From assembly GCA_046317775.1 (NCBI GenBank), contig JBKCVO010000066.1:7872-71871 (forward strand): a DNA stretch of 64,000 nucleotides. Reading direction: 5' to 3'. Shown here one piece after another: positions 34,498-43,871 of the stretch. A model generated the notes under the pieces. The model saw only the letters and a program-made list of their open reading frames with translations, made no database searches and had not been told where the DNA came from. A program made the position numbers and the translations under genes. Numbering within the stretch: the first letter of the stretch is position 1; each line of letters starts with the position of its first letter. Origin of the DNA: Cyclobacteriaceae bacterium. Lineage in GTDB: Bacteria > Bacteroidota > Bacteroidia > Cytophagales > Cyclobacteriaceae.

Positions 34498-35829
34498 TTA
34501 CTTCAATAATTCCGCAATCGCATTTTCTACTTGTTGAAAATTGAACTTCACATAAACCGTCTTGAAGCTTTGTTCTATTTCTGCGTGGCACAAGTTTCCA
34601 ATGCTTCCTTCATGTGTATGATGGATGGCAGTAGAATAGGTGAAGCTGCCGTTTTCAATATCACTACCAATTTTTTTGTACGCATCGCGGAAAGGGACAC
34701 CGCTTAACACCAACTTGTTCACTTCTTCTACGCTGAAGAGGTAGCGGTACTTCTCATCGTTGAGAATATTTTCTTCCACTTCCAAGTGGGAGATCATCAG
34801 ATGCGTCATTTCCAGACAATCGCGGAGGGTTTGCAAAGCCGGAAAGAGTTTTTCTTTGAGCAGCTGCAAATCACGGTGATAGCCGGAAGGTAGATTAGTG
34901 GTGAGCATAGCAATTTCATTCGGCAAACTCATGAGTCCGTTGCACTTGGCGCGGATCAACTCAAACACATCCGGATTTTTTTTGTGCGGCATGATACTAG
35001 ATCCGGTAGTCAGATTTTCCGGAAAGCGAATGAACCCAAAATTCTGATTGAGGTACAAACACGCATCCATCGCCAGTTTACCCAATGTAGCGGCTACGTT
35101 GCTGATCGCCTGCGCTACAATGCGTTCGGCTTTTCCGCGGCCCATTTGTGCATAGACCACATTGTAGTTCAGATCATCAAAGCCAAGCAACTTTGTGGTG
35201 AGTGTGCGATTGAGTGGAAACGATGAACCATAACCGGCAGCAGAACCCAGCGGATTTTTATTGACCACACGATATGCAGCTTCCAACGTGATCAGGTCAT
35301 CGGATAAGCTTTCCGCGTAAGCTCCCAACCACAATCCAAATGAGGAAGGCATTGCCAACTGCAAATGAGTATAGCCCGGCAACAAATGATCTTTGAATTG
35401 ATCACTCTGGCTGAGCAGCAATTGAAAGACTCGCTCAATTTGAGGTGCTAACTCTAAAATTTCACTTCGCAAAAATAACTTTACATCCACCAGCACCTGG
35501 TCGTTGCGTGAGCGTCCGCTGTGAATTTTCTTACCAACATCGCCTAGCTTCTTGGTCAACATCCATTCCACTTGCGAGTGAATGTCTTCCACTTCTTCCT
35601 CCATCTTAAAATTACCCTGCCCGATTTGGACGTAGATATTTTTAAGCTCTGATGAAAGTAACGTTAGTTCTTCATTGGTCAAAAGATGAATGGACTCTAG
35701 CATGCGAATGTGTGCGAGTGAACCCAGCACATCAAACGATGCTAGATAAAGATCCATTTCGCGGTCTTTGCCCACCGTAAAGCGGGTCACTTCCTTGCTA
35801 GAGTCGGTATTTTTTTGCCAAAGCTTCAT
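34498..35829 (-). CDS. argH: Argininosuccinate lyase
   Basis: HSGRSRNDQ, PGYTHLQ, GSSIMPHKKNPD. Confidence 0.95.
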   Translation of the reverse strand: MKLWQKNTDSSKEVTRFTVGKDREMDLYLASFDVLGSLAHIRMLESIHLLTNEELTLLSSELKNIYVQIGQGNFKMEEEVEDIHSQVEWMLTKKLGDVGKKIHSGRSRNDQVLVDVKLFLRSEILELAPQIERVFQLLLSQSDQFKDHLLPGYTHLQLAMPSSFGLWLGAYAESLSDDLITLEAAYRVVNKNPLGSAAGYGSSFPLNRTLTTKLLGFDDLNYNVVYAQMGRGKAERIVAQAISNVAATLGKLAMDACLYLNQNFGFIRFPENLTTGSSIMPHKKNPDVFELIRAKCNGLMSLPNEIAMLTTNLPSGYHRDLQLLKEKLFPALQTLRDCLEMTHLMISHLEVEENILNDEKYRYLFSVEEVNKLVLSGVPFRDAYKKIGSDIENGSFTYSTAIHHTHEGSIGNLCHAEIEQSFKTVYVKFNFQQVENAIAELLK

Positions 35830-35833
35830 TATA

Positions 35834-36418
35834 TTATTTTATGAGTAAAGGAAAATTGATTTGAAGATACTGAATCAGGAGGATGGTTTTACCATCGCGT
35901 ATTTCTCCCGAAGCTACCATGTCAACTGCTTTCGCGAAAGGTAACTCGATTACGGTAATATCTTCGTGAACATCTACACCACCACCCGATGATACTTTCA
36001 TCGAAGGTGAGTACTCTGCTACAAAGAAATGCAGAATTTCCGTCACCGATCCGGGCGACATGTACGCTTCAAATATCTTCTTGACTTCTTTGATCTGATA
36101 ACCGGTTTCTTCTTCGGTTTCTCTGCGAATGCAATCTTCCGGATTATCTAAATCCAATAACCCAGCACATGCTTCCAGCAACATGCCGGTGGCATTGCCA
36201 TTGATATAAGTGGGAAGCCTGAACTGCTCGGTGAGGAGAATAGTCTTCTGATTGAGATTGTAGAGTAATATTGTAGCTCCGTTACCTCGGTCATACGCCT
36301 CTCTGCTTTGCTGAATCCAAGTACCGTTTTGGTGTTGATAGTCGAAAGTTACTTTCTTCAGCGTATACCAGTTATTTGAAAGAATTTCAGTATTGGTGAT
36401 CTTTACGCGTTGGTTCAT
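35834..36418 (-). CDS. nudK: NUDIX hydrolase, GDP-mannose pyrophosphatase-like
   Basis: [39 protein letters not shown]. Confidence 0.8.
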
Positions 36419-36498
36419 GGGTGTTTCAGGTTACTGGTTTCTAGTTTTTGAGTTCCAGATATCTTCAATCGTTAACTTCTTTATTTTCCCATTAGCAT

Positions 36499-36562
36499 CT
36501 TTGTGATTTCGTGTCCTCGTGGCGCAAATACTTTTTAGCCACAAAGGCTCAAAGGCACAAAG
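36499..36562. repeat. Imperfect inverted repeat with 8-nt periodicity (REP-like)
   Basis: ctttgtgatttcgtgtcctcgtggc ... gccacaaaggctcaaaggcacaaag. Confidence 0.65.
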
Positions 36563-36565
36563 AAA

Positions 36566-37633
36566 TCAGATGGTTTTTATCAAACTCTCCAGCACTGCTA
36601 TATACGATTCTATACCCTGTTCAATTTCCTTTACAAAGATAAACTCATCCGCACTATGGGACCTAGCTGAATCACCGGGGCCCATTTTGATGGATGGAAC
36701 AGGAATCAACGCCTGATCGGAAGTAGTAGGGGAGCCGTAAGTATTGATTTTCAATTTCTCCGCCACTTTCATCAATGGATGATCATTGGCTATTCCGGAT
36801 GGGCGCAAACGCAACGAGCGTGGCGTTACCTGACAACGTACATTTTGTTGAACGGTCTCCAGAATTTCTTCCAGCGTGTAACAATCTGTTGCGCGAATGT
36901 CAACCGTAAACTTACATTCCGGTGGCACCTGATTATGTGCTTGTCCCGCATGAATCACCGTGACGCTCATTTTTACTTTGCCCAGTGTTTCTGAAATTTT
37001 CGGAAACTCATACGTGCGAAACCACTGGATGTCTTCGATTGCAGCATAAATTGCATTCACACCTTCTTCACGGGCAGCGTGTCCGGCTTTGCCTTCGCTC
37101 ACACAATCCAACACCAACAATCCTTTCTCAGCACGTGCGATTTGCGTAAGCGTTGGTTCGCCTACAATGGCAAAATCGATCGTTGGTAGATCGTTCCAGA
37201 TCATTTCAACACCACCTGTACCGGAGATTTCTTCTTCGGCTGTAGCAGCCATCACTAAGTTGTAAGGAAGATTAGGGCGATCATAGAAATAGAAAAAGGT
37301 AGCGATGAGTGATACAAGCGGGCCGCCAGCATCATTGCTTCCCAAGCCAAATAGCTTGCCATTCTCGATGACTCCGGCAAAAGGATCACGTGTGTAACCG
37401 GGATTGGGCTTCACAGTGTCGTGGTGCGAGTTGAGTAAAATCGTGGGCTTCGCTTTATCGAAGAAACGATTCACAGCCCAAACATTATTTCCTTTCCGCT
37501 CGGCCTTCATACCATGGTAATTGAGAAAGCCTATCAGTAAGCCAGCCGTTTTATCTTCTTCTTTGCTGAAGGAAGGAATACTGATCAACTGTTGTAACAA
37601 GTCGATCGCAATAGGGGCAAGGTGTTCTTTCAC
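36566..37633 (-). CDS. argE: M20 metallohydrolase (ArgE-like deacylase)
   Basis: NSHHDTV, GSNDAGG, AEEE, GEPT, HSADE; located inside the arg operon. Confidence 0.8.
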   Translation of the reverse strand: MKEHLAPIAIDLLQQLISIPSFSKEEDKTAGLLIGFLNYHGMKAERKGNNVWAVNRFFDKAKPTILLNSHHDTVKPNPGYTRDPFAGVIENGKLFGLGSNDAGGPLVSLIATFFYFYDRPNLPYNLVMAATAEEEISGTGGVEMIWNDLPTIDFAIVGEPTLTQIARAEKGLLVLDCVSEGKAGHAAREEGVNAIYAAIEDIQWFRTYEFPKISETLGKVKMSVTVIHAGQAHNQVPPECKFTVDIRATDCYTLEEILETVQQNVRCQVTPRSLRLRPSGIANDHPLMKVAEKLKINTYGSPTTSDQALIPVPSIKMGPGDSARSHSADEFIFVKEIEQGIESYIAVLESLIKTI

Positions 37634-38421
37634 TACAGTGTAATTAGTGTGCCTTTTGTTTCGTAGCCCGTGTTTGCAATCAAGTGTGTATGTTCACCAA
37701 TCAGCACTTCTTTCACACCCGATTGAATCGCTTGAAACGCATTTTCTAATTTAGGCAAAATGCCATCGTGAAAAGCCCCTTTCTTCAATAGCTCTTCATA
37801 GGATGTCTTATTCAACGAAGTAATGACCGAATCTTCTTTCGTTACATCGGCCAGCACGCCCGTTTTTTCAAAGCAGAAAATGAGGCGCGTGTCAAAGTGC
37901 TTACTCAAGGCAATGGCTAACACTGATGCAATGGTGTCGGCATTGGTATTGAGCATCGATCCATTCGCATGGGTGAGGGGTGCAAATACCGGAATGACAT
38001 TTTGCTTAAGTAAAAAATAAAGCAATATGGAGTTCACGCTATCCGGAGTAATGTCGCCCACAAAACCAAAATCCACTTCACCCACCGGGCGCTTGGTGGC
38101 TTTGATCAGGTTTCCATCGGCACCCGTTAAACCAATGGCATTGCAATGATGTGCCTGCAATTGTGCCACGATTTGTTTATTCACCAAACCGCCATACACC
38201 ATCGTCACCAAATCCAGTGTGGGTGCATCGGTTATGCGTCTGCCTTTAATGTAATTGCTTTTGATACCCAACTGCTCGCCTAATTTGGTGGCAATCTTTC
38301 CGCCTCCGTGAATCAGAATTTTAGGTGCCTGAATGGAAGCAAAGTCCTTCAGGAAATGTTGCAACGATTTTTCATCATCCAATACATTGCCCCCAATTTT
38401 GATAACGTACAATTTATTCAT
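37633..38421 (-). CDS. argB: Acetylglutamate kinase
   Basis: VIKIGG, HGGG, NTNADTIA, GILPKL. Confidence 0.92.
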   Translation of the reverse strand: MNKLYVIKIGGNVLDDEKSLQHFLKDFASIQAPKILIHGGGKIATKLGEQLGIKSNYIKGRRITDAPTLDLVTMVYGGLVNKQIVAQLQAHHCNAIGLTGADGNLIKATKRPVGEVDFGFVGDITPDSVNSILLYFLLKQNVIPVFAPLTHANGSMLNTNADTIASVLAIALSKHFDTRLIFCFEKTGVLADVTKEDSVITSLNKTSYEELLKKGAFHDGILPKLENAFQAIQSGVKEVLIGEHTHLIANTGYETKGTLITL

Positions 38422-38430
38422 ACTTAAGAA

Positions 38431-39381
38431 TTACTTTTTCAAAATTTCTGCCAGCACCGCTTGTGCAGCCCAAATCCGGTTCACCGCTTGCTGCGTTACA
38501 ATACTCGAGGTGCTGTCGAGGATTTCATCACTCAACTCCACATTTCTGCGCACGGGCAAACAGTGCATCACTTTAGCATTACGAGTGGTGGCAATTTTTT
38601 CGGTTGTCAACATCCACTCCGGATCGTTGCAATAAATTTTGCCGTAGTCTTGGTAGGTACTCCAATTTTTCACGTAAATGAAATCCGCATCGCGCAAAGC
38701 TTCATCCTGATCGTGCGTGATTGTGGCACCTTTGGTAAACTGCGGATCTAGTTCGTAGTCTTCGGGATGTGCGATCGTAAAATCGGCACCACCCCAGGCA
38801 TTAATCCATTGTGAGAAACTGTTGGCTACACATTGTGGCAAGGCTTTTACATGGGGAGCCCACGTCAAGACAATTTTCGGTTTGCGTTTCTCGGTAAAGT
38901 TTTCGTTGATGGTGATTAGATCGGCCAGACTTTGCAAGGGGTGGAGTGTCGCGCTTTCTAAACTTACTACGGGCACTCCGGCATACTTAATAAATTGATT
39001 GATGTACAATTCGCTGTAGTCGTCTTGCTTATTTTTCAGCGAAGGAAACGTGCGAATGCCAAGTACATCAAAATATTTTCCTAAGATAGGCGCTGCATCT
39101 TTCACGTGCTCTACGGTGGTGCCGCTCATGATCGCCTCGTCTTCAAATTCAAATGCCCATCCATCCTGGCCCACATTAAAGACGATCACATCCATGCCCA
39201 AGTTTTTCGCAGCGATTTCGGTGCTGAGTCGTGTGCGCATGCTGGGATTTAAAAACAATAAACCCATTCGTTTTCCCTGACCTAAATGAACAGACTTCAA
39301 TGGATTTTTTTTGAATTCCAATGCTTGGGCAATCAACGATTGAAAGTTGCCAGCATCGTGGCATGATAGAAATTTCTTCAT
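38431..39381 (-). CDS. N-acyl-ornithine carbamoyltransferase (ArgF' type)
   Basis: NPSMRT, HPLQ, LTWAPH, HCLPVRR, distinctive of the AOTCase/SOTCase group. Confidence 0.88.
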   Translation of the reverse strand: MKKFLSCHDAGNFQSLIAQALEFKKNPLKSVHLGQGKRMGLLFLNPSMRTRLSTEIAAKNLGMDVIVFNVGQDGWAFEFEDEAIMSGTTVEHVKDAAPILGKYFDVLGIRTFPSLKNKQDDYSELYINQFIKYAGVPVVSLESATLHPLQSLADLITINENFTEKRKPKIVLTWAPHVKALPQCVANSFSQWINAWGGADFTIAHPEDYELDPQFTKGATITHDQDEALRDADFIYVKNWSTYQDYGKIYCNDPEWMLTTEKIATTRNAKVMHCLPVRRNVELSDEILDSTSSIVTQQAVNRIWAAQAVLAEILKK

Positions 39382-40514
39382 CCTACAGAAACGGGTTTAA
39401 GTTCTTGAGCAAGGGCTTCTAAAAAGAGATCAATCTCTGCCTGCGAAATCGCAAGCGATGGCAACAAGCGCACCGTATTGGGTTTTGCTTCTCCGGTAAA
39501 GATATGATGTTTGAAAAGCAGTTCTTTTCGAAGCGAGGCCAGTTCCTCGGGTAAATCAAAACCAATCATCAAACCTTGACCGCGCACATCGACAATAGCA
39601 TCCATTCCTTTTAATTGTGCGATCAGTTGCTCACCCAATTGATGAGCCTTCGCCATCAGATTTTCTTTTTCGATTACTTCTAGCACAGCCAGTGATGCAG
39701 CGCAGGCAAGGTAGTTTCCACCAAAGGTAGTGCCCAACATTCCACTCCAAGGTTGAATGGAAGGATGAATCAACACACCACCCACCGGAAAACCGTTTCC
39801 CATTCCTTTTGCAATGGTAATCAAATCGGCTTCGATGCCGGCAAACTGATGTGCGAAGAATTTTCCGGTACGGCCATAGCCGGATTGTACTTCATCTAAG
39901 ATTAATAATGCACCAACTTCCTTACACTTTTTAGAAAGCAATTGTAGAAATTCATTCGTAGGAACGTGGATTCCCCCAACTCCCTGAATACCTTCGATGA
40001 TGACAGCAGCTACTTCATTATTGATTGCCTTCGTGAATGCATCCGCATCGTTGAAGGGTAAAAACTGAATAGCATGATCGGCATTGAAAGGTGCAACGAT
40101 CTTTGGATTGTCGGTGGCGGCAACAGCTCCGGAGGTTCTTCCATGAAATGCCTTTTTAAAGGAAATTACTTTTTTACGACCAGTAACAAACGAAGCAAGC
40201 TTCAATGCGTTTTCATTGGCCTCGGCTCCGGAGTTACACAGAAACAATTGGTGGTTGGGATAACCGCTCAGCCGGCCAAGATGCTCTGCCAGTTTTTCTT
40301 GCAATTCATTTTTAATGCTGTTGGAGTAAAAGCTGATTTTATCCAACTGAGATTTCAGTGCTTCTACAAAATGCGGATGGTTGTGCCCGATGGAGATGAC
40401 AGCATGGCCACCATATAAATCAAGATATTTTTTGCCTTCTTTATCCCACAGCCAAGAGCCATGTGCCTTGACAGGTTCAATAGGAAAGAGTGGATATACG
40501 TCAAATAGTTTCAA
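39378..40514 (-). CDS. argD: Acylornithine aminotransferase
   Basis: NSGAEANE, FHGRT, DEVQSGYGRTG, AKG, TTFGGN. Confidence 0.9.
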   Translation of the reverse strand: MKLFDVYPLFPIEPVKAHGSWLWDKEGKKYLDLYGGHAVISIGHNHPHFVEALKSQLDKISFYSNSIKNELQEKLAEHLGRLSGYPNHQLFLCNSGAEANENALKLASFVTGRKKVISFKKAFHGRTSGAVAATDNPKIVAPFNADHAIQFLPFNDADAFTKAINNEVAAVIIEGIQGVGGIHVPTNEFLQLLSKKCKEVGALLILDEVQSGYGRTGKFFAHQFAGIEADLITIAKGMGNGFPVGGVLIHPSIQPWSGMLGTTFGGNYLACAASLAVLEVIEKENLMAKAHQLGEQLIAQLKGMDAIVDVRGQGLMIGFDLPEELASLRKELLFKHHIFTGEAKPNTVRLLPSLAISQAEIDLFLEALAQELKPVSVG

Positions 40515-40536
40515 GTTCTGTTTTGTTTAAATGTGT

Positions 40537-41514
40537 TTAAAAAACGATCGGTTTCAGTTTCAATCCCAGCGTTTCATCGAATCCAAAAATCAAATTCATA
40601 TTTTGAATTGCCTGCCCGCTGGCGCCTTTTACCAGATTATCGATGGCAGAGTGGATGACCAGTTGGTTGCCTACTTTTTCCAAATACAAAAGGCATTTAT
40701 TGGTATTCACTACCTGCTTCATATCGATCATGCTCTCCGCTACATGCGTGAAGGGATGCGAGGTGTAGAAATCTTTATACAGTTGATTGGCCTCTTCCAA
40801 ACTTAGGTTTGATTCAAGCACCGATGTCACAAAAATGCCTCTCGTAAAATCACCGCGCCAGGGAATAAAATGAACATTGTCGGCAAATGCTGGCTGCAAC
40901 GAGCGCAGCGTCTGTTGGATTTCTCCTAAGTGTTGATGCTTAAGCGTTTTGTAAGGCGATATGTTATTCGCTCGCCAGGTAAAGTGCGTGGTATCTTGTA
41001 ATTTTTGTCCGGCACCTGTTGAACCCGTAATGCCGGTAGTGTGTACGGACTTTAACAGACCGGCTTTCGCCAGCGGCAACAATCCCAATTGAATCGCGGT
41101 AGCAAAGCAACCGGGGTTGGCAATGTTTTTAGCGCCTTTAATTTTTTCGCGTTGAAACTCGGGCAATCCGTATACAAACTCCCGACCCGAAACGGAATCG
41201 CCCAGACGAAAGTCATTTCCCAAGTCGATGATATGTGTAGTGGCAGGAAACGTAGTTTCACTCAACAGTTTTTTGCTTTCTCCGTGACTCAGGCACAAAA
41301 ACAACACATCAACTTCCTGATTAAAATCTGCACTGAAAGTCAAATTGGTTTCGCCTACCAAATCTCCATGAATAGAGGTGATCGGTTTACCCGCCTGACT
41401 GCGACTTTGTACAAACTTCAGTTCCACCTGCGGATGGTTGAGCAACAATCGCACGGTTTCTCCTCCGGTGTAGCCAGCTCCTCCAATAATTCCTGCCTGA
41501 ATTTTTTTTGTCAT
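40537..41514 (-). CDS. argC: N-acyl-gamma-glutamyl-phosphate reductase
   Basis: GGAGYTG, ANPGCF, GSTGAG, IDNLVKGASGQA. Confidence 0.95.
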   Translation of the reverse strand: MTKKIQAGIIGGAGYTGGETVRLLLNHPQVELKFVQSRSQAGKPITSIHGDLVGETNLTFSADFNQEVDVLFLCLSHGESKKLLSETTFPATTHIIDLGNDFRLGDSVSGREFVYGLPEFQREKIKGAKNIANPGCFATAIQLGLLPLAKAGLLKSVHTTGITGSTGAGQKLQDTTHFTWRANNISPYKTLKHQHLGEIQQTLRSLQPAFADNVHFIPWRGDFTRGIFVTSVLESNLSLEEANQLYKDFYTSHPFTHVAESMIDMKQVVNTNKCLLYLEKVGNQLVIHSAIDNLVKGASGQAIQNMNLIFGFDETLGLKLKPIVF

Positions 41515-41521
41515 GGTTGAA

Positions 41522-42727
41522 TTATTTCTCACCCGGTTGTGAATTCATCACCTGATGGTAAATCGCCACCTGGTTGCCAAATATTTTGGTGAAGCCTTTC
41601 ACATCGTCACCGCTCCAACCCAGATTCATTTCGCCATACTTTCCAAACTTAGCCGACATCAAATCAAAGTTCGATTCAATACCATTGATTTGATAGCGGT
41701 AGGGGTGAAGCGTAATCGAAACTTCGCCTGTACAGTTTTGCTGGGTGCTTTTGAGAAAGCTTTCAATGTCGCGCATCACCGGATCAAGGTATTGGCCTTC
41801 GTGCAGCCAGTTGCCATAGAATTGCGCCAGCTGATCTTTCCAACTCAATTGCCATTTGGTGAGCACATGTTTTTCGAGGGCGTGATGCGCCTTTAAGATC
41901 AATACAGGTGCAGCAGCTTCAAAACCCACTCGGCCTTTGATACCAATGATGGTGTCGCCTACGTGAATATCGCGGCCAATCCCGTAAGGAGCAGCTATGG
42001 CTTGTAGTTGTTGAATCACTTCAGTTGGGTGAGCATATTTTTTTCCGTTCAACGAAACGGGTTCACCTTTCTCATATCCAATTCTTATTTCTTCGCTTCC
42101 GGTTTTGGTTACCGGTGTGGGCCATGCTTCTTCGGGTAGTTGTCCTAACGAGTTAAGTGTTTCTTTGCCACCTACGCTCGTGCCCCAAATGCCTTTATTA
42201 ATGGAGTATTTCGCCTTCTCGAAATTGTAAACAACGCCTTTCGCTTTCAGGTATTCAATTTCGGCTTCGCGGCTCAATTTCATATCACGAATAGGCGTGA
42301 TGATTTCAATGCCGGGGGCTAAAATTTGAAACACCATATCAAAGCGCACCTGATCGTTTCCGGCACCGGTGCTGCCGTGTGCTACTGCTTCAGCACCAAT
42401 TTGCTTGGCGTAATTGGCCACCGCTAGCGCCTGTGACATGCGTTCGGCACTCACGCTCAATGGATAGATCGCGTTCTTCAACACATTGCCGAAGATCAGA
42501 TACTTAATCACTTGATCGTAGTAGCGTTTGGTTTCATCGATAGTCCGGTGTGAGGCTACGCCTAAACCCATCGCACGTTTTTCAATGGCCTGAAGTTCGG
42601 CAGCATCAAATCCTCCTGTATTCACCGTAAGGGTATGCACTTCATAATCCAAATCATCGGTCAAATATTTCCCGCAGTACGAAGTATCTAAACCTCCACT
42701 GAATGCCAGCACAACTTTTTTCTTCAT
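41522..42727 (-). CDS. argG: Argininosuccinate synthase
   Basis: LAFSGGLDTS, HGSTGAGNDQVRF, FEAAA. Confidence 0.95.
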   Translation of the reverse strand: MKKKVVLAFSGGLDTSYCGKYLTDDLDYEVHTLTVNTGGFDAAELQAIEKRAMGLGVASHRTIDETKRYYDQVIKYLIFGNVLKNAIYPLSVSAERMSQALAVANYAKQIGAEAVAHGSTGAGNDQVRFDMVFQILAPGIEIITPIRDMKLSREAEIEYLKAKGVVYNFEKAKYSINKGIWGTSVGGKETLNSLGQLPEEAWPTPVTKTGSEEIRIGYEKGEPVSLNGKKYAHPTEVIQQLQAIAAPYGIGRDIHVGDTIIGIKGRVGFEAAAPVLILKAHHALEKHVLTKWQLSWKDQLAQFYGNWLHEGQYLDPVMRDIESFLKSTQQNCTGEVSITLHPYRYQINGIESNFDLMSAKFGKYGEMNLGWSGDDVKGFTKIFGNQVAIYHQVMNSQPGEK

Positions 42728-43479
42728 TACCAAAATAGAAATAGGCTTAAAATTGAATTTTTCTTTTCGCGGGTGTCGCCTTCATCTTTTTTGCGCCAGC
42801 CTTTCAGCAGCACAAATTGTTTGAAGCGTACCCATCTTTCGAACAGCTTGAAGTTACCGGCAAACTCACGCTTGCGGTGGTGCTCCAGATTTCCTTCCGG
42901 GGTAACTACCGTTTGTGCCAACTCGGCTTTTTTCTTCGCCACTTCTTCAGGGTCGTAGAGCATCGCAGTACACATGCAGTTCTGGCGATTTTTGCTCATC
43001 AGAATTTCGTAGTTCACGCAGCTCTGACAGCCTTTCCAAAATTGATCGTCTGTCGTGAGTTGTGAATACGTCACCGGCTCGTAACCGAGCTCGGAGTTAA
43101 TTTTCATTACGGCCAATCCGGTGGTCAATCCAAAGATTTTTGCGTCCGGATATTTCTTTCGGGATAGCTCGAATACTTTGCGCTTGATGAGTGTAGCAAC
43201 TCCCGATTTGCGGAAAGCGGGCGACACGATTAGTCCGCTGTTGGCTACGAACTTTTCGTGTTCCCACGATTCGATGTAGCAAAAGCCAACCCACGTATTA
43301 TCGGGTGTGAGAGCGATGACTGCTTTGCCCTCTTCCATTTTCAATTTGATATAGTCAGGCGAGCGCTTGGCAATCCCTGTTCCACGAGCCTTGGCCGATT
43401 CAGCCATTTCTGTGGTGATTGTTTCTGCAAAATGTGTATCGGCAGCCGTAGCCGCGCGAACAATGATATTGTTTTCCAA
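42727..43479 (-). CDS. GNAT acyltransferase heading the arg operon (probable N-acylglutamate synthase)
   Basis: SAKARGTGIAKR, VANSGLIV, FWKGCQSC; TAATG overlap with argG. Confidence 0.8.
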   Translation of the reverse strand: MENNIIVRAATAADTHFAETITTEMAESAKARGTGIAKRSPDYIKLKMEEGKAVIALTPDNTWVGFCYIESWEHEKFVANSGLIVSPAFRKSGVATLIKRKVFELSRKKYPDAKIFGLTTGLAVMKINSELGYEPVTYSQLTTDDQFWKGCQSCVNYEILMSKNRQNCMCTAMLYDPEEVAKKKAELAQTVVTPEGNLEHHRKREFAGNFKLFERWVRFKQFVLLKGWRKKDEGDTREKKNSILSLFLFW

Positions 43480-43583
43480 TTTGATAAAATGTTAAGAAAT
43501 GGTAGAACCGAGTAAACGTGCGAAAAGCACTTTTACAAAATCACCTGGTGATTTTGAATGACATCAGTACAAAGATGTCGGTA

Positions 43584-43715
43584 TCAGATTCTAATCCGCC
43601 TGTGCGGTCGTCTGCTAACGGTGCAAACCGTAGAGAGAAGGTGAAGCAATGCCTGATCGGCACTGGTGGCGAGCGATGATGCGCTCAAAGGGTGGTTGTT
43701 GACTAATTTTTCCAA
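43584..43715 (-). promoter_or_regulatory. Candidate Arg-rich leader peptide ORF (43 aa)
   Basis: TTG start; MEKLVNNHPLSASSLATSADQALLHLLSTVCTVSRRPHRRIRI*; Arg codons AGA CGA AGG CGG AGA; downstream hairpins; precedes the arg operon. Confidence 0.6.
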
Positions 43716-43871
43716 TTCTCGGTGATGCTTGTTTTAAGTTACGTAAATGGCATTCAAAAAATGTTTTTGTAAAATTAACGGATTTAACAACGAATAATCC
43801 AATATTGAGTTGGAATTTTACAGATTAATTTACTGTTACCAAACGACCGATCGCTTTTTTCTCCACAAGCC

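Follow-up and report, generated by a model that had tools for sequence, protein, structure and literature searches.

A conserved arginine-codon-rich leader ORF upstream of the arg operon in Cytophagales and Chitinophagales, a probable reporter of charged tRNA-Arg supply

How is arginine biosynthesis controlled in bacteria whose arg operon has no argR gene beside it? Arginine is the textbook example of a pathway under a protein repressor, and ArgR/AhrC, bound to operator DNA, is the usual means by which bacteria control their arg genes. In Bacteroides, argR is presumably the first gene of the arg cluster. The window analysed here, by which we mean the whole 64-kb stretch of DNA, carries a nine-gene operon in the order GNAT-argG-argC-argD-argF'-argB-argE-nudK-like-argH, in which argF' is of the acetyl/succinyl-ornithine carbamoyltransferase type and many genes abut or overlap. 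An earlier note on this sequence had proposed that a small ORF upstream of the operon is an arginine-sensing leader peptide and that ribosome-mediated attenuation replaces ArgR. The features needed to follow the argument are as follows.

34498..42733, minus strand: argG, argC, argD, argF'-type, argB, argE, nudK-like and argH genes, the rest of the operon, with NCBIfam matches
42727..43479, minus strand: GNAT acetyltransferase gene, 250 aa, first gene of the operon, TTG start in the context AATTGGAAAA
43581..43586, minus strand: stop codon of the leader ORF in its conserved context TGATAC; TGATA[CG] follows the last sense codon in nearly all loci and in every tail type
43587..43613, minus strand: Arg-codon cluster, the proposed sensor, AGA CGA CCG CAC AGG CGG ATT AGA ATC = R R P H R R I R I
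43584-43715, minus strand: leader ORF, 43 codons, TTG start in the context GAGAATTGGAAAA, TGA stop at 43586-43584

The observation that no argR lies beside the operon holds, as the 5' neighbour of the leader is a divergent DedA/VTT membrane protein gene followed by purT. The same is true of 160 related loci, in which, as in the window, the genes adjacent to the operon are unrelated to argR. A phmmer search of the six-frame translations of the 64-kb window and of these 160 loci with E. coli ArgR, a single distant query used without a positive control, found no homologue at E values up to 10. The absence of ArgR is thus a local one, and the part of the earlier proposal according to which the leader replaces ArgR goes further than these data.

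Two members of the operon deserve comment in their own right. The gene at 35834-36418 (minus strand), which sits between argE and argH, encodes a NudK/YffH-type Nudix hydrolase (E 4e-79 to GDP-mannose pyrophosphatase NudK) with no obvious role in arginine synthesis. As for the GNAT protein, it matches known N-acetyltransferase models weakly (E 4e-4), and because of this the first enzyme of this pathway variant must be regarded as poorly characterised. It also has a conserved C-terminal extension (residues ~147-175) with an invariant Cys pattern, FWKGC-SC ... NC-C-TAM, which from its sequence looks like a metal-binding module.

The unannotated minus-strand ORF that the earlier note had described was confirmed at 43715-43584. 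It encodes a peptide of 43 residues, MEKLVNNHPLSASSLATSADQALLHLLSTVCTVSRRPHRRIRI, with the C-terminus SRRPHRRIRI, and its TGA is separated by 104 nt from the TTG start of the GNAT gene at 43479. All five of its Arg codons, which read AGA, CGA, AGG, CGG and AGA in that order, fall within the final nine codons, just as the note had it. In the 42 long ORFs of the window, 3.4% of codons specify Arg, and 57% of these are CGT or CGC. The leader ORF is therefore unusual in its clustering of Arg as well as in its choice of Arg codons, the chance of five Arg codons without CGT or CGC being ~0.43^5 = 0.015. The identity of its start context to that of the GNAT gene was also borne out, the ten bases AATTGGAAAA being common to both. 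Bacteroidota initiate translation without Shine-Dalgarno pairing. At the start of the GNAT gene (window 43477-43479, minus strand), TTG or GTG is found in nearly all related loci and ATG in few, and the surrounding AA-TTG-GAA is nearly identical to the start context of the leader. The conservation of a weak start codon on both reading frames suggests, at the sequence level, a shared layer of translational control. For the proposal that the upstream ORF is a translated sensor, its TTG or GTG start is a point against.

Related loci were collected with the GNAT protein as query, 80 from species-representative genomes and 80 from metagenomes. The named records belong to Cyclobacteriaceae, Roseivirgaceae, Chryseolinea, Chitinophaga, Sediminibacterium, Ferruginibacter, Filimonas and other Chitinophagaceae. 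We counted a locus as positive if an upstream ORF ended 60-170 nt before the GNAT gene and carried three or more Arg among its final 10 codons. This rule was satisfied by 129 of 148 unique GNAT-arg loci, compared with 11 for the reverse complement of the same regions and 2 for the coding control, so that the conserved Arg-clustered upstream ORFs that the earlier note had proposed to look for at orthologous loci are indeed there. The 148 independent loci span Cyclobacteriaceae, Chryseolinea, Chitinophaga, Chitinophagaceae and uncultured Bacteroidota. Almost all of the loci collected, ~150 in number, have a small ORF on the operon strand with an Arg-rich C-terminus, which ends 80-135 nt before the GNAT start. 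The C-terminal tails fall into several types, written here up to the stop codon.

...TRRPHRRIRI (W-type): window and its closest relatives
...RSFRRQIRI
...RRPRPTRFVRI
...FRYLSRRPRI: Chitinophaga
...LPRPRRGC and ...SPRRRPGC: other Chitinophagaceae
...FYSRR, ...FSPRR and ...VRR: ATG-start peptides that begin with MKK, uncultured Bacteroidota

Arg is the sole feature that all these types have in common. The N-terminal two thirds of the peptides are poorly conserved in sequence and in length (the ORFs comprise 22-44 codons), as is the N-terminal part of known leader peptides. In the loci examined, the ORF is linked solely to arg operons. The genes found 5' of it vary by lineage, with at least 12 unrelated families and 40 singletons on either strand. 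As the upstream genes differ while the leader stays, the element travels with the arg operon. Two GNAT-arg loci have upstream ORFs that fit the Arg-tail pattern poorly, namely those of Adhaeribacter rhizoryzae (L058, ...AYRQVYPLRA) and of Aquiflexum sp. (L075, ...RRFRNSFRVTSPI). Judging from these ORFs, both bacteria may have lost or replaced the leader, in which case they would be useful contrasts.

Upstream of the leader ORF, the close relatives of the window share two further features.

43770..43777, minus strand: candidate Bacteroidota -7 promoter box TAATTTTA, ~55 nt 5' of the leader ORF start
43743..43756, minus strand: conserved 5'-UTR motif TGAATGCCATTTAC (also TGAATGCCWTTTA), between the candidate promoter and the leader start

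The first is named after TAnnTTTG, which we take to be the Bacteroidota -7 promoter consensus, and all 20 of the W-type relatives listed conserve it there as TAATTTTG/A. The second occurs in 16 of the 20 W-type leaders, and in 10 of these 16 its best complement is a GGCATTG located 71-72 nt 5' of the ORF end. In the window the motif possibly pairs with GGCATT inside the ORF (43653-43648). One relative has GGCA/TGCC in place of the usual letters of the motif and its partner, a variant that hints at a helix around the leader start codon.

Is the leader ORF translated, and is it Arg that is being conserved? For the window's tail type, entropy at codon positions 1, 2 and 3 amounts to 0.28, 0.24 and 0.81, respectively, and inside each tail type the third position is about three times more variable than the first two. 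Pairwise differences in the window's type are synonymous in 396 cases and non-synonymous in 142. The five Arg positions are kept in 14-16 of 16 unique W-type tails, with AGA, AGG, CGA, CGC, CGT and CGG all in use. The Arg located two codons before the stop is encoded by AGA, AGG, CGA or CGC in this type and by AGA, AGG, CGG or CGT in the RSFRRQIRI type. Such two-base swaps between AGR and CGN codons change the RNA sequence but leave the amino acid, or the family of tRNA in use, the same. In addition, a start motif, NAR-[TG]TG-RA, in which a purine-rich stretch is followed by TTG or GTG and then by RA, can be found 22 to 44 codons 5' of the stop. Its frame is that of the stop in 47 cases, the other two frames accounting for 5 and 1, so that insertions and deletions must have kept the frame despite the variation in length. 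Altogether, these sequence comparisons make it well supported that the frame is translated and that the Arg identity of three to five of the last ten codons is under purifying selection.

Selection also appears to extend to the choice of codon, in a manner different from that first proposed. According to the earlier note, the Arg codons of the leader would be rare ones, never CGT or CGC. This is true of the ORF in the window and does not apply to the family, in which CGT and CGC represent 30% of the Arg codons of the tails and are thus not avoided. The hallmark of the family is CGA, which accounts for 44% of tail Arg codons compared with 8% in the long flanking ORFs of the same loci; Arg codon usage, which the note had suggested computing, was taken here from the long ORFs of the window and of the loci. 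Each tail type has a near-invariant CGA followed by an Arg or a Pro codon, and this CGA is invariant in groups A, C and D. The pair is CGA-AGG in 14 of 14 tails, CGA-CGA in 14 of 14, CGA-CGT/C in 31 of 31 and, in the window's type, CGA-CCG in 10 of 16. In bacteria, CGA is decoded slowly, through an I-A wobble, by the inosine-containing tRNA-Arg(ICG), which also decodes the abundant CGT and CGC codons. In yeast, CGA-CGA and CGA-CCG are strongly inhibitory codon pairs. We infer that CGA may have been retained because, among the codons read by the major Arg isoacceptor, it is the slowest, and that the leader would thereby respond to how fully this tRNA is charged.

A sensor of free arginine might also be envisaged, in the form of a nascent peptide that arrests its own ribosome, like the fungal arginine attenuator peptide or TnaC. 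High arginine would then stall the ribosome at or near the UGA and shut the operon. The stop codon and its surroundings have properties in keeping with this idea, given that the UGAUA context is nearly universal across the related loci and that the stop lies in or beside a conserved hairpin; moreover, the last residues are kept within clades (RI or GC before the stop) and Pro is common in the tails. However, a peptide sensor would not be expected to select among synonymous codons, and the preference for CGA is what one would expect of a sensor of tRNA supply. The tail sequence varies between clades, leaving Arg alone in common, and some clades end in plain RR. We therefore regard peptide arrest as unlikely, and favour a leader that reads the supply of charged tRNA-Arg.

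Past the leader ORF, the spacer that leads to the GNAT gene is structured, and in the window its 104 nt fold into three hairpins (z = -2.72 relative to dinucleotide shuffles).

43560..43579, minus strand: H1, GACATC / GATGTC, which begins 7 nt past the first base of the stop codon; 81% of cells paired
43536..43556, minus strand: H2, CAAAATCAC / GTGATTTTG with the apex CCAGG, the strongest and best conserved helix; 92-98% of cells paired
43512..43530, minus strand: H3, GTGC / GCAC (43530-43518) followed by GTTTAC, weak and terminator-like; core 94% paired

A covariance model built from the window and three close relatives recovers the element where expected in 40 loci, which belong to the RRPHRRIRI, RSFRRQIRI and RRPRPTRFVRI types. 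In the resulting alignment of H1-H3, 85.7% of cells are paired, compared with 61.8% for shuffles and 30-48% for slid partners, and double-sided changes are found in 223 cells for 72 expected; the alignment was fitted to the model, which favours structure, and the margin is large nonetheless. H1 has two-sided changes at all six pairs and also appears in the RNA folding of the window. H2 shows many compensatory changes and is likewise predicted by folding. H3 consists of a 4-bp GC stem as its core, with a modest U-rich tail, and its A/U extension is paired in 58% of cells. For the 78 nt that begin at the stop codon, the mean z relative to shuffles is -1.70 over 144 loci, and the ORF body is structured as well, with a mean z of -1.53. 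The apex of H2 is nearly always C-NAG-G (CCAGG, CTAGG or CAAGG) on a stem that covaries freely, and in several relatives the arms of H2 resemble anti-Shine-Dalgarno/Shine-Dalgarno pairs (CCUCC/GGAGG, AUCACC/GGUGAU).

Other clades have other hairpins. In Chitinophagaceae, an 8-bp helix, CUGAUAGG/CCUAUCAG, includes the stop codon and is paired in 100% of cases (n=46). One of its pairs covaries as UA/UG/CG, and it encloses a small covarying hairpin, with the conserved GUGAAAAAAUCCCC after it. The element as a whole, CUGAUAGG-ACGAGC...GCC-CCUAUCAG-UGAAAAAAUCCCC, is almost invariant (L027-L080 and L122-L146; e.g. L044, 2897-2945). The unpaired GGACGAG and UCCCC around this hairpin, for which Rfam has no match, are conserved beyond what base pairing would need. 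In Chitinophaga, a similar helix, GAUAGCG/CGCUAUC, has its 5' end inside the stop codon. The hairpins thus differ by clade while the Arg tail persists.

Could the structured RNA, be it H1-H3 or the stop-codon hairpin of Chitinophagaceae, be the actual regulator, binding a protein or a ligand, with the ORF secondary or incidental? The strong covariation of H1-H3 and the near-invariance of unpaired GGACGAG and UCCCC in Chitinophagaceae are what such an element would display, and the folding of nine leaders, described below, revealed no switch that depends on the ribosome. On the other hand, the variation at third positions, the AGR/CGN swaps and the in-frame start motif indicate that the frame itself is selected, the hairpins change from clade to clade while the Arg tail stays, and no Rfam family matches. 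We consider this possibility very unlikely. An alternative in which the ORF specifies a small protein with an independent function, or adjusts GNAT translation through, for instance, the delivery of ribosomes, with no arginine sensing involved, is extremely unlikely. The non-AUG start context conserved in both ORF and GNAT gene and the one ATG-start homologue called as an unnamed gene in a public collection would fit such a role, but the N-terminal two thirds are unconserved over 22-44 codons, the Arg tail alone is kept, the ORF occurs exclusively with arg operons in the loci examined, and it ends ~100 nt and three hairpins before the GNAT start, too far for direct coupling.

How a leader that reports the supply of charged tRNA-Arg might act on transcription is less apparent. 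A consensus terminator scan of the intergenic region of the window was negative, and H3 does not pass it. With relaxed settings, a hairpin followed by a T-tract was found in 24 of 150 spacers for 4 expected, an enrichment that still concerns a minority of loci. We folded nine W-type leaders while masking the footprint of a ribosome placed on the first Arg codon, on the last one or on the stop. H1 and structures internal to the ORF alone responded to masking, and H2 and H3 remained unchanged. The claim of ribosome-mediated attenuation made by the earlier note is hence sustained for its first half, an Arg-sensing leader, by the selection on frame and on Arg, and not for its second, as the nine leaders revealed no alternative between terminator and antiterminator that the ribosome would control.

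Several candidate switches were considered and set aside. A long-range helix joining the last codons to the segment 3' of H3 had looked promising on inspection of several leaders and was present in minimum-energy folds; with a mean z of -0.4 relative to shuffles, 54% pairing as in the shuffles and no covariation, it was rejected. A mini-hairpin formed by the last codons and the stop is paired in 87% of cases, which is fully accounted for by sequence conservation. For Chitinophagaceae, we considered whether the 3' strand of the stop-codon hairpin pairs with the first GNAT codons; z was ~0, and the Arg-8 codon has no matching codon bias. A second small ORF starting from a conserved GTG past that hairpin proved inconsistent in frame and length.

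The composition of the leader is compatible with the loading of Rho. On the transcript strand, C exceeds G in 94% of leaders (ORF and spacer, 151 loci, including window 43480-43715), and the C/G ratio is 1.46 in the leader compared with 0.84 in the adjacent GNAT gene. A C-rich, G-poor composition is typical of Rho-binding regions. A model in which Rho would simply bind a naked-RNA rut site was discarded, the ORF body being more structured than shuffles; in the folding calculations, its structure argues against such a simple arrangement.

Considering the sequence evidence as a whole, we regard the finding as real: the arg operons of Cytophagales, Chitinophagales and related uncultured Bacteroidota have a leader ORF specific to them that is conserved, translated and rich in Arg codons, and that is followed by a structured spacer. 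It is probable that this ORF is the translated leader of the arg operon transcript and reports the supply of charged tRNA-Arg. Its role as the sensor is well supported by the comparisons above. When charged tRNA-Arg is scarce, the ribosome would dwell on the CGA codon or the Arg cluster, 2-9 codons before the stop. The distance from Arg to stop is 2 codons in most types, 3-4 in Chitinophagaceae and 1-2 in the types that end in RR. As an Arg codon is near the stop in all types, a waiting ribosome would reach the foot of the first hairpin. It would thus sit over the stop codon and its surroundings and over the base of the first hairpin downstream or, in Chitinophagaceae, the hairpin that contains the stop codon. 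With the stop-proximal structure open or occupied, read-through would ensue, and transcription and expression of GNAT-argG...argH would continue. When arginine is plentiful, the ribosome would terminate and leave, the leader would refold, and most transcripts would be shortened or silenced before the GNAT gene.

The nature of this OFF step is the weakest link of our proposal, and both the read-through and the refolding are steps that we infer. In the window's clade, the weak H3 hairpin with its U-rich tail might serve the purpose. In clades with no terminator, Rho-dependent termination on the C-rich, G-poor leader would be more likely. Control in Cytophagales and Chitinophagales might then be free of ArgR and rely on a slow CGA close to a hairpin-linked stop, with Rho loading or another effect of the parked ribosome as its output, a scheme that we put forward as a tentative and rather doubtful one. 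If it is true, this way of reading CGA at a stop hairpin would represent a structurally new expression platform for leader-peptide control.

How does the leader compare with known systems? The classical leader-peptide attenuators are trpL, hisL, thrL, leuL, ilvL and pheL. Like them, it is a short ORF in the 5' leader, with codons for the end product near its 3' end, a structured spacer and linkage to the operon. Unlike them, it senses arginine in our interpretation, it has non-AUG starts, and it retains one particular synonymous codon, CGA. Furthermore, no overlapping terminator/antiterminator pair was detected, and canonical terminators are present in a minority of loci. From its sequence, the leader thus appears to possess the two sensor features of the classical attenuators and, as far as tested, to lack their terminator/antiterminator alternative. 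The E. coli tnaC leader and the Salmonella mgtL/mgtP and orf34 leaders are Rho-dependent leader-ORF attenuators. In our proposal, the arg leader resembles them in that the position of a ribosome near the end of the leader ORF would decide the fate of transcription, and in being C-rich and G-poor. It differs from them by its target, which is arginine biosynthesis instead of tryptophanase, Mg2+ or polyamine genes, by the lack of sequence similarity, and by a rut site that is conjectural here. The orf34 leader upstream of Salmonella speF is a case in which consecutive Arg codons read arginine supply (PMC6386406).

The fungal arginine attenuator peptide (Neurospora arg-2, yeast CPA1 uORF) is likewise encoded by an upstream ORF on a gene of the arginine pathway. 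It senses free arginine through a conserved nascent peptide and blocks scanning ribosomes, whereas in the bacterial leader it is the Arg codons that are conserved, and codon choice matters. The fungal uORF and the bacterial operon leader are unrelated elements with a theme alone in common. As for the ArgR/AhrC system, it has the same target genes and the same physiological purpose as the leader, and differs in being a DNA-binding repressor protein.

Leader-peptide attenuation as such is known from Bacteroidetes: Flavobacterium psychrophilum has leaders of this kind on its ilvE, hisG, trp and aromatic operons (PMC9723704), and the Bacteroid-trp motif belongs to the same class. Our search of the openly available full-text literature yielded no description of an Arg leader in Bacteroidetes and, with the same scope, no biosynthetic arg operon controlled by a leader peptide. 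Arginine is not mentioned in a broad survey of attenuators (PMC2965389). No Rfam 15 family matched the window or 12 loci at gathering score, matches at E up to 10 being at chance level, and no NCBIfam 20 model matched eight leader peptides. Three of four leader peptides were absent from a collection of 15 billion proteins, in which the fourth is present with no name. In our estimation, the element is thus quite probably an arginine-specific member of the leader-peptide attenuator class, apparently undescribed.

If confirmed, the leader would explain how arginine synthesis is controlled in two large orders of environmental Bacteroidota, and arginine would join the amino acids that are sensed by ribosome-mediated attenuation. 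For annotators, it would amount to a new small gene and RNA element in hundreds of genomes. It would also offer a natural example of a single synonymous codon, CGA, retained as a sensor. As the usual terminator/antiterminator logic is not visible, the leader may reveal a route of attenuation in a phylum that initiates translation without Shine-Dalgarno pairing.
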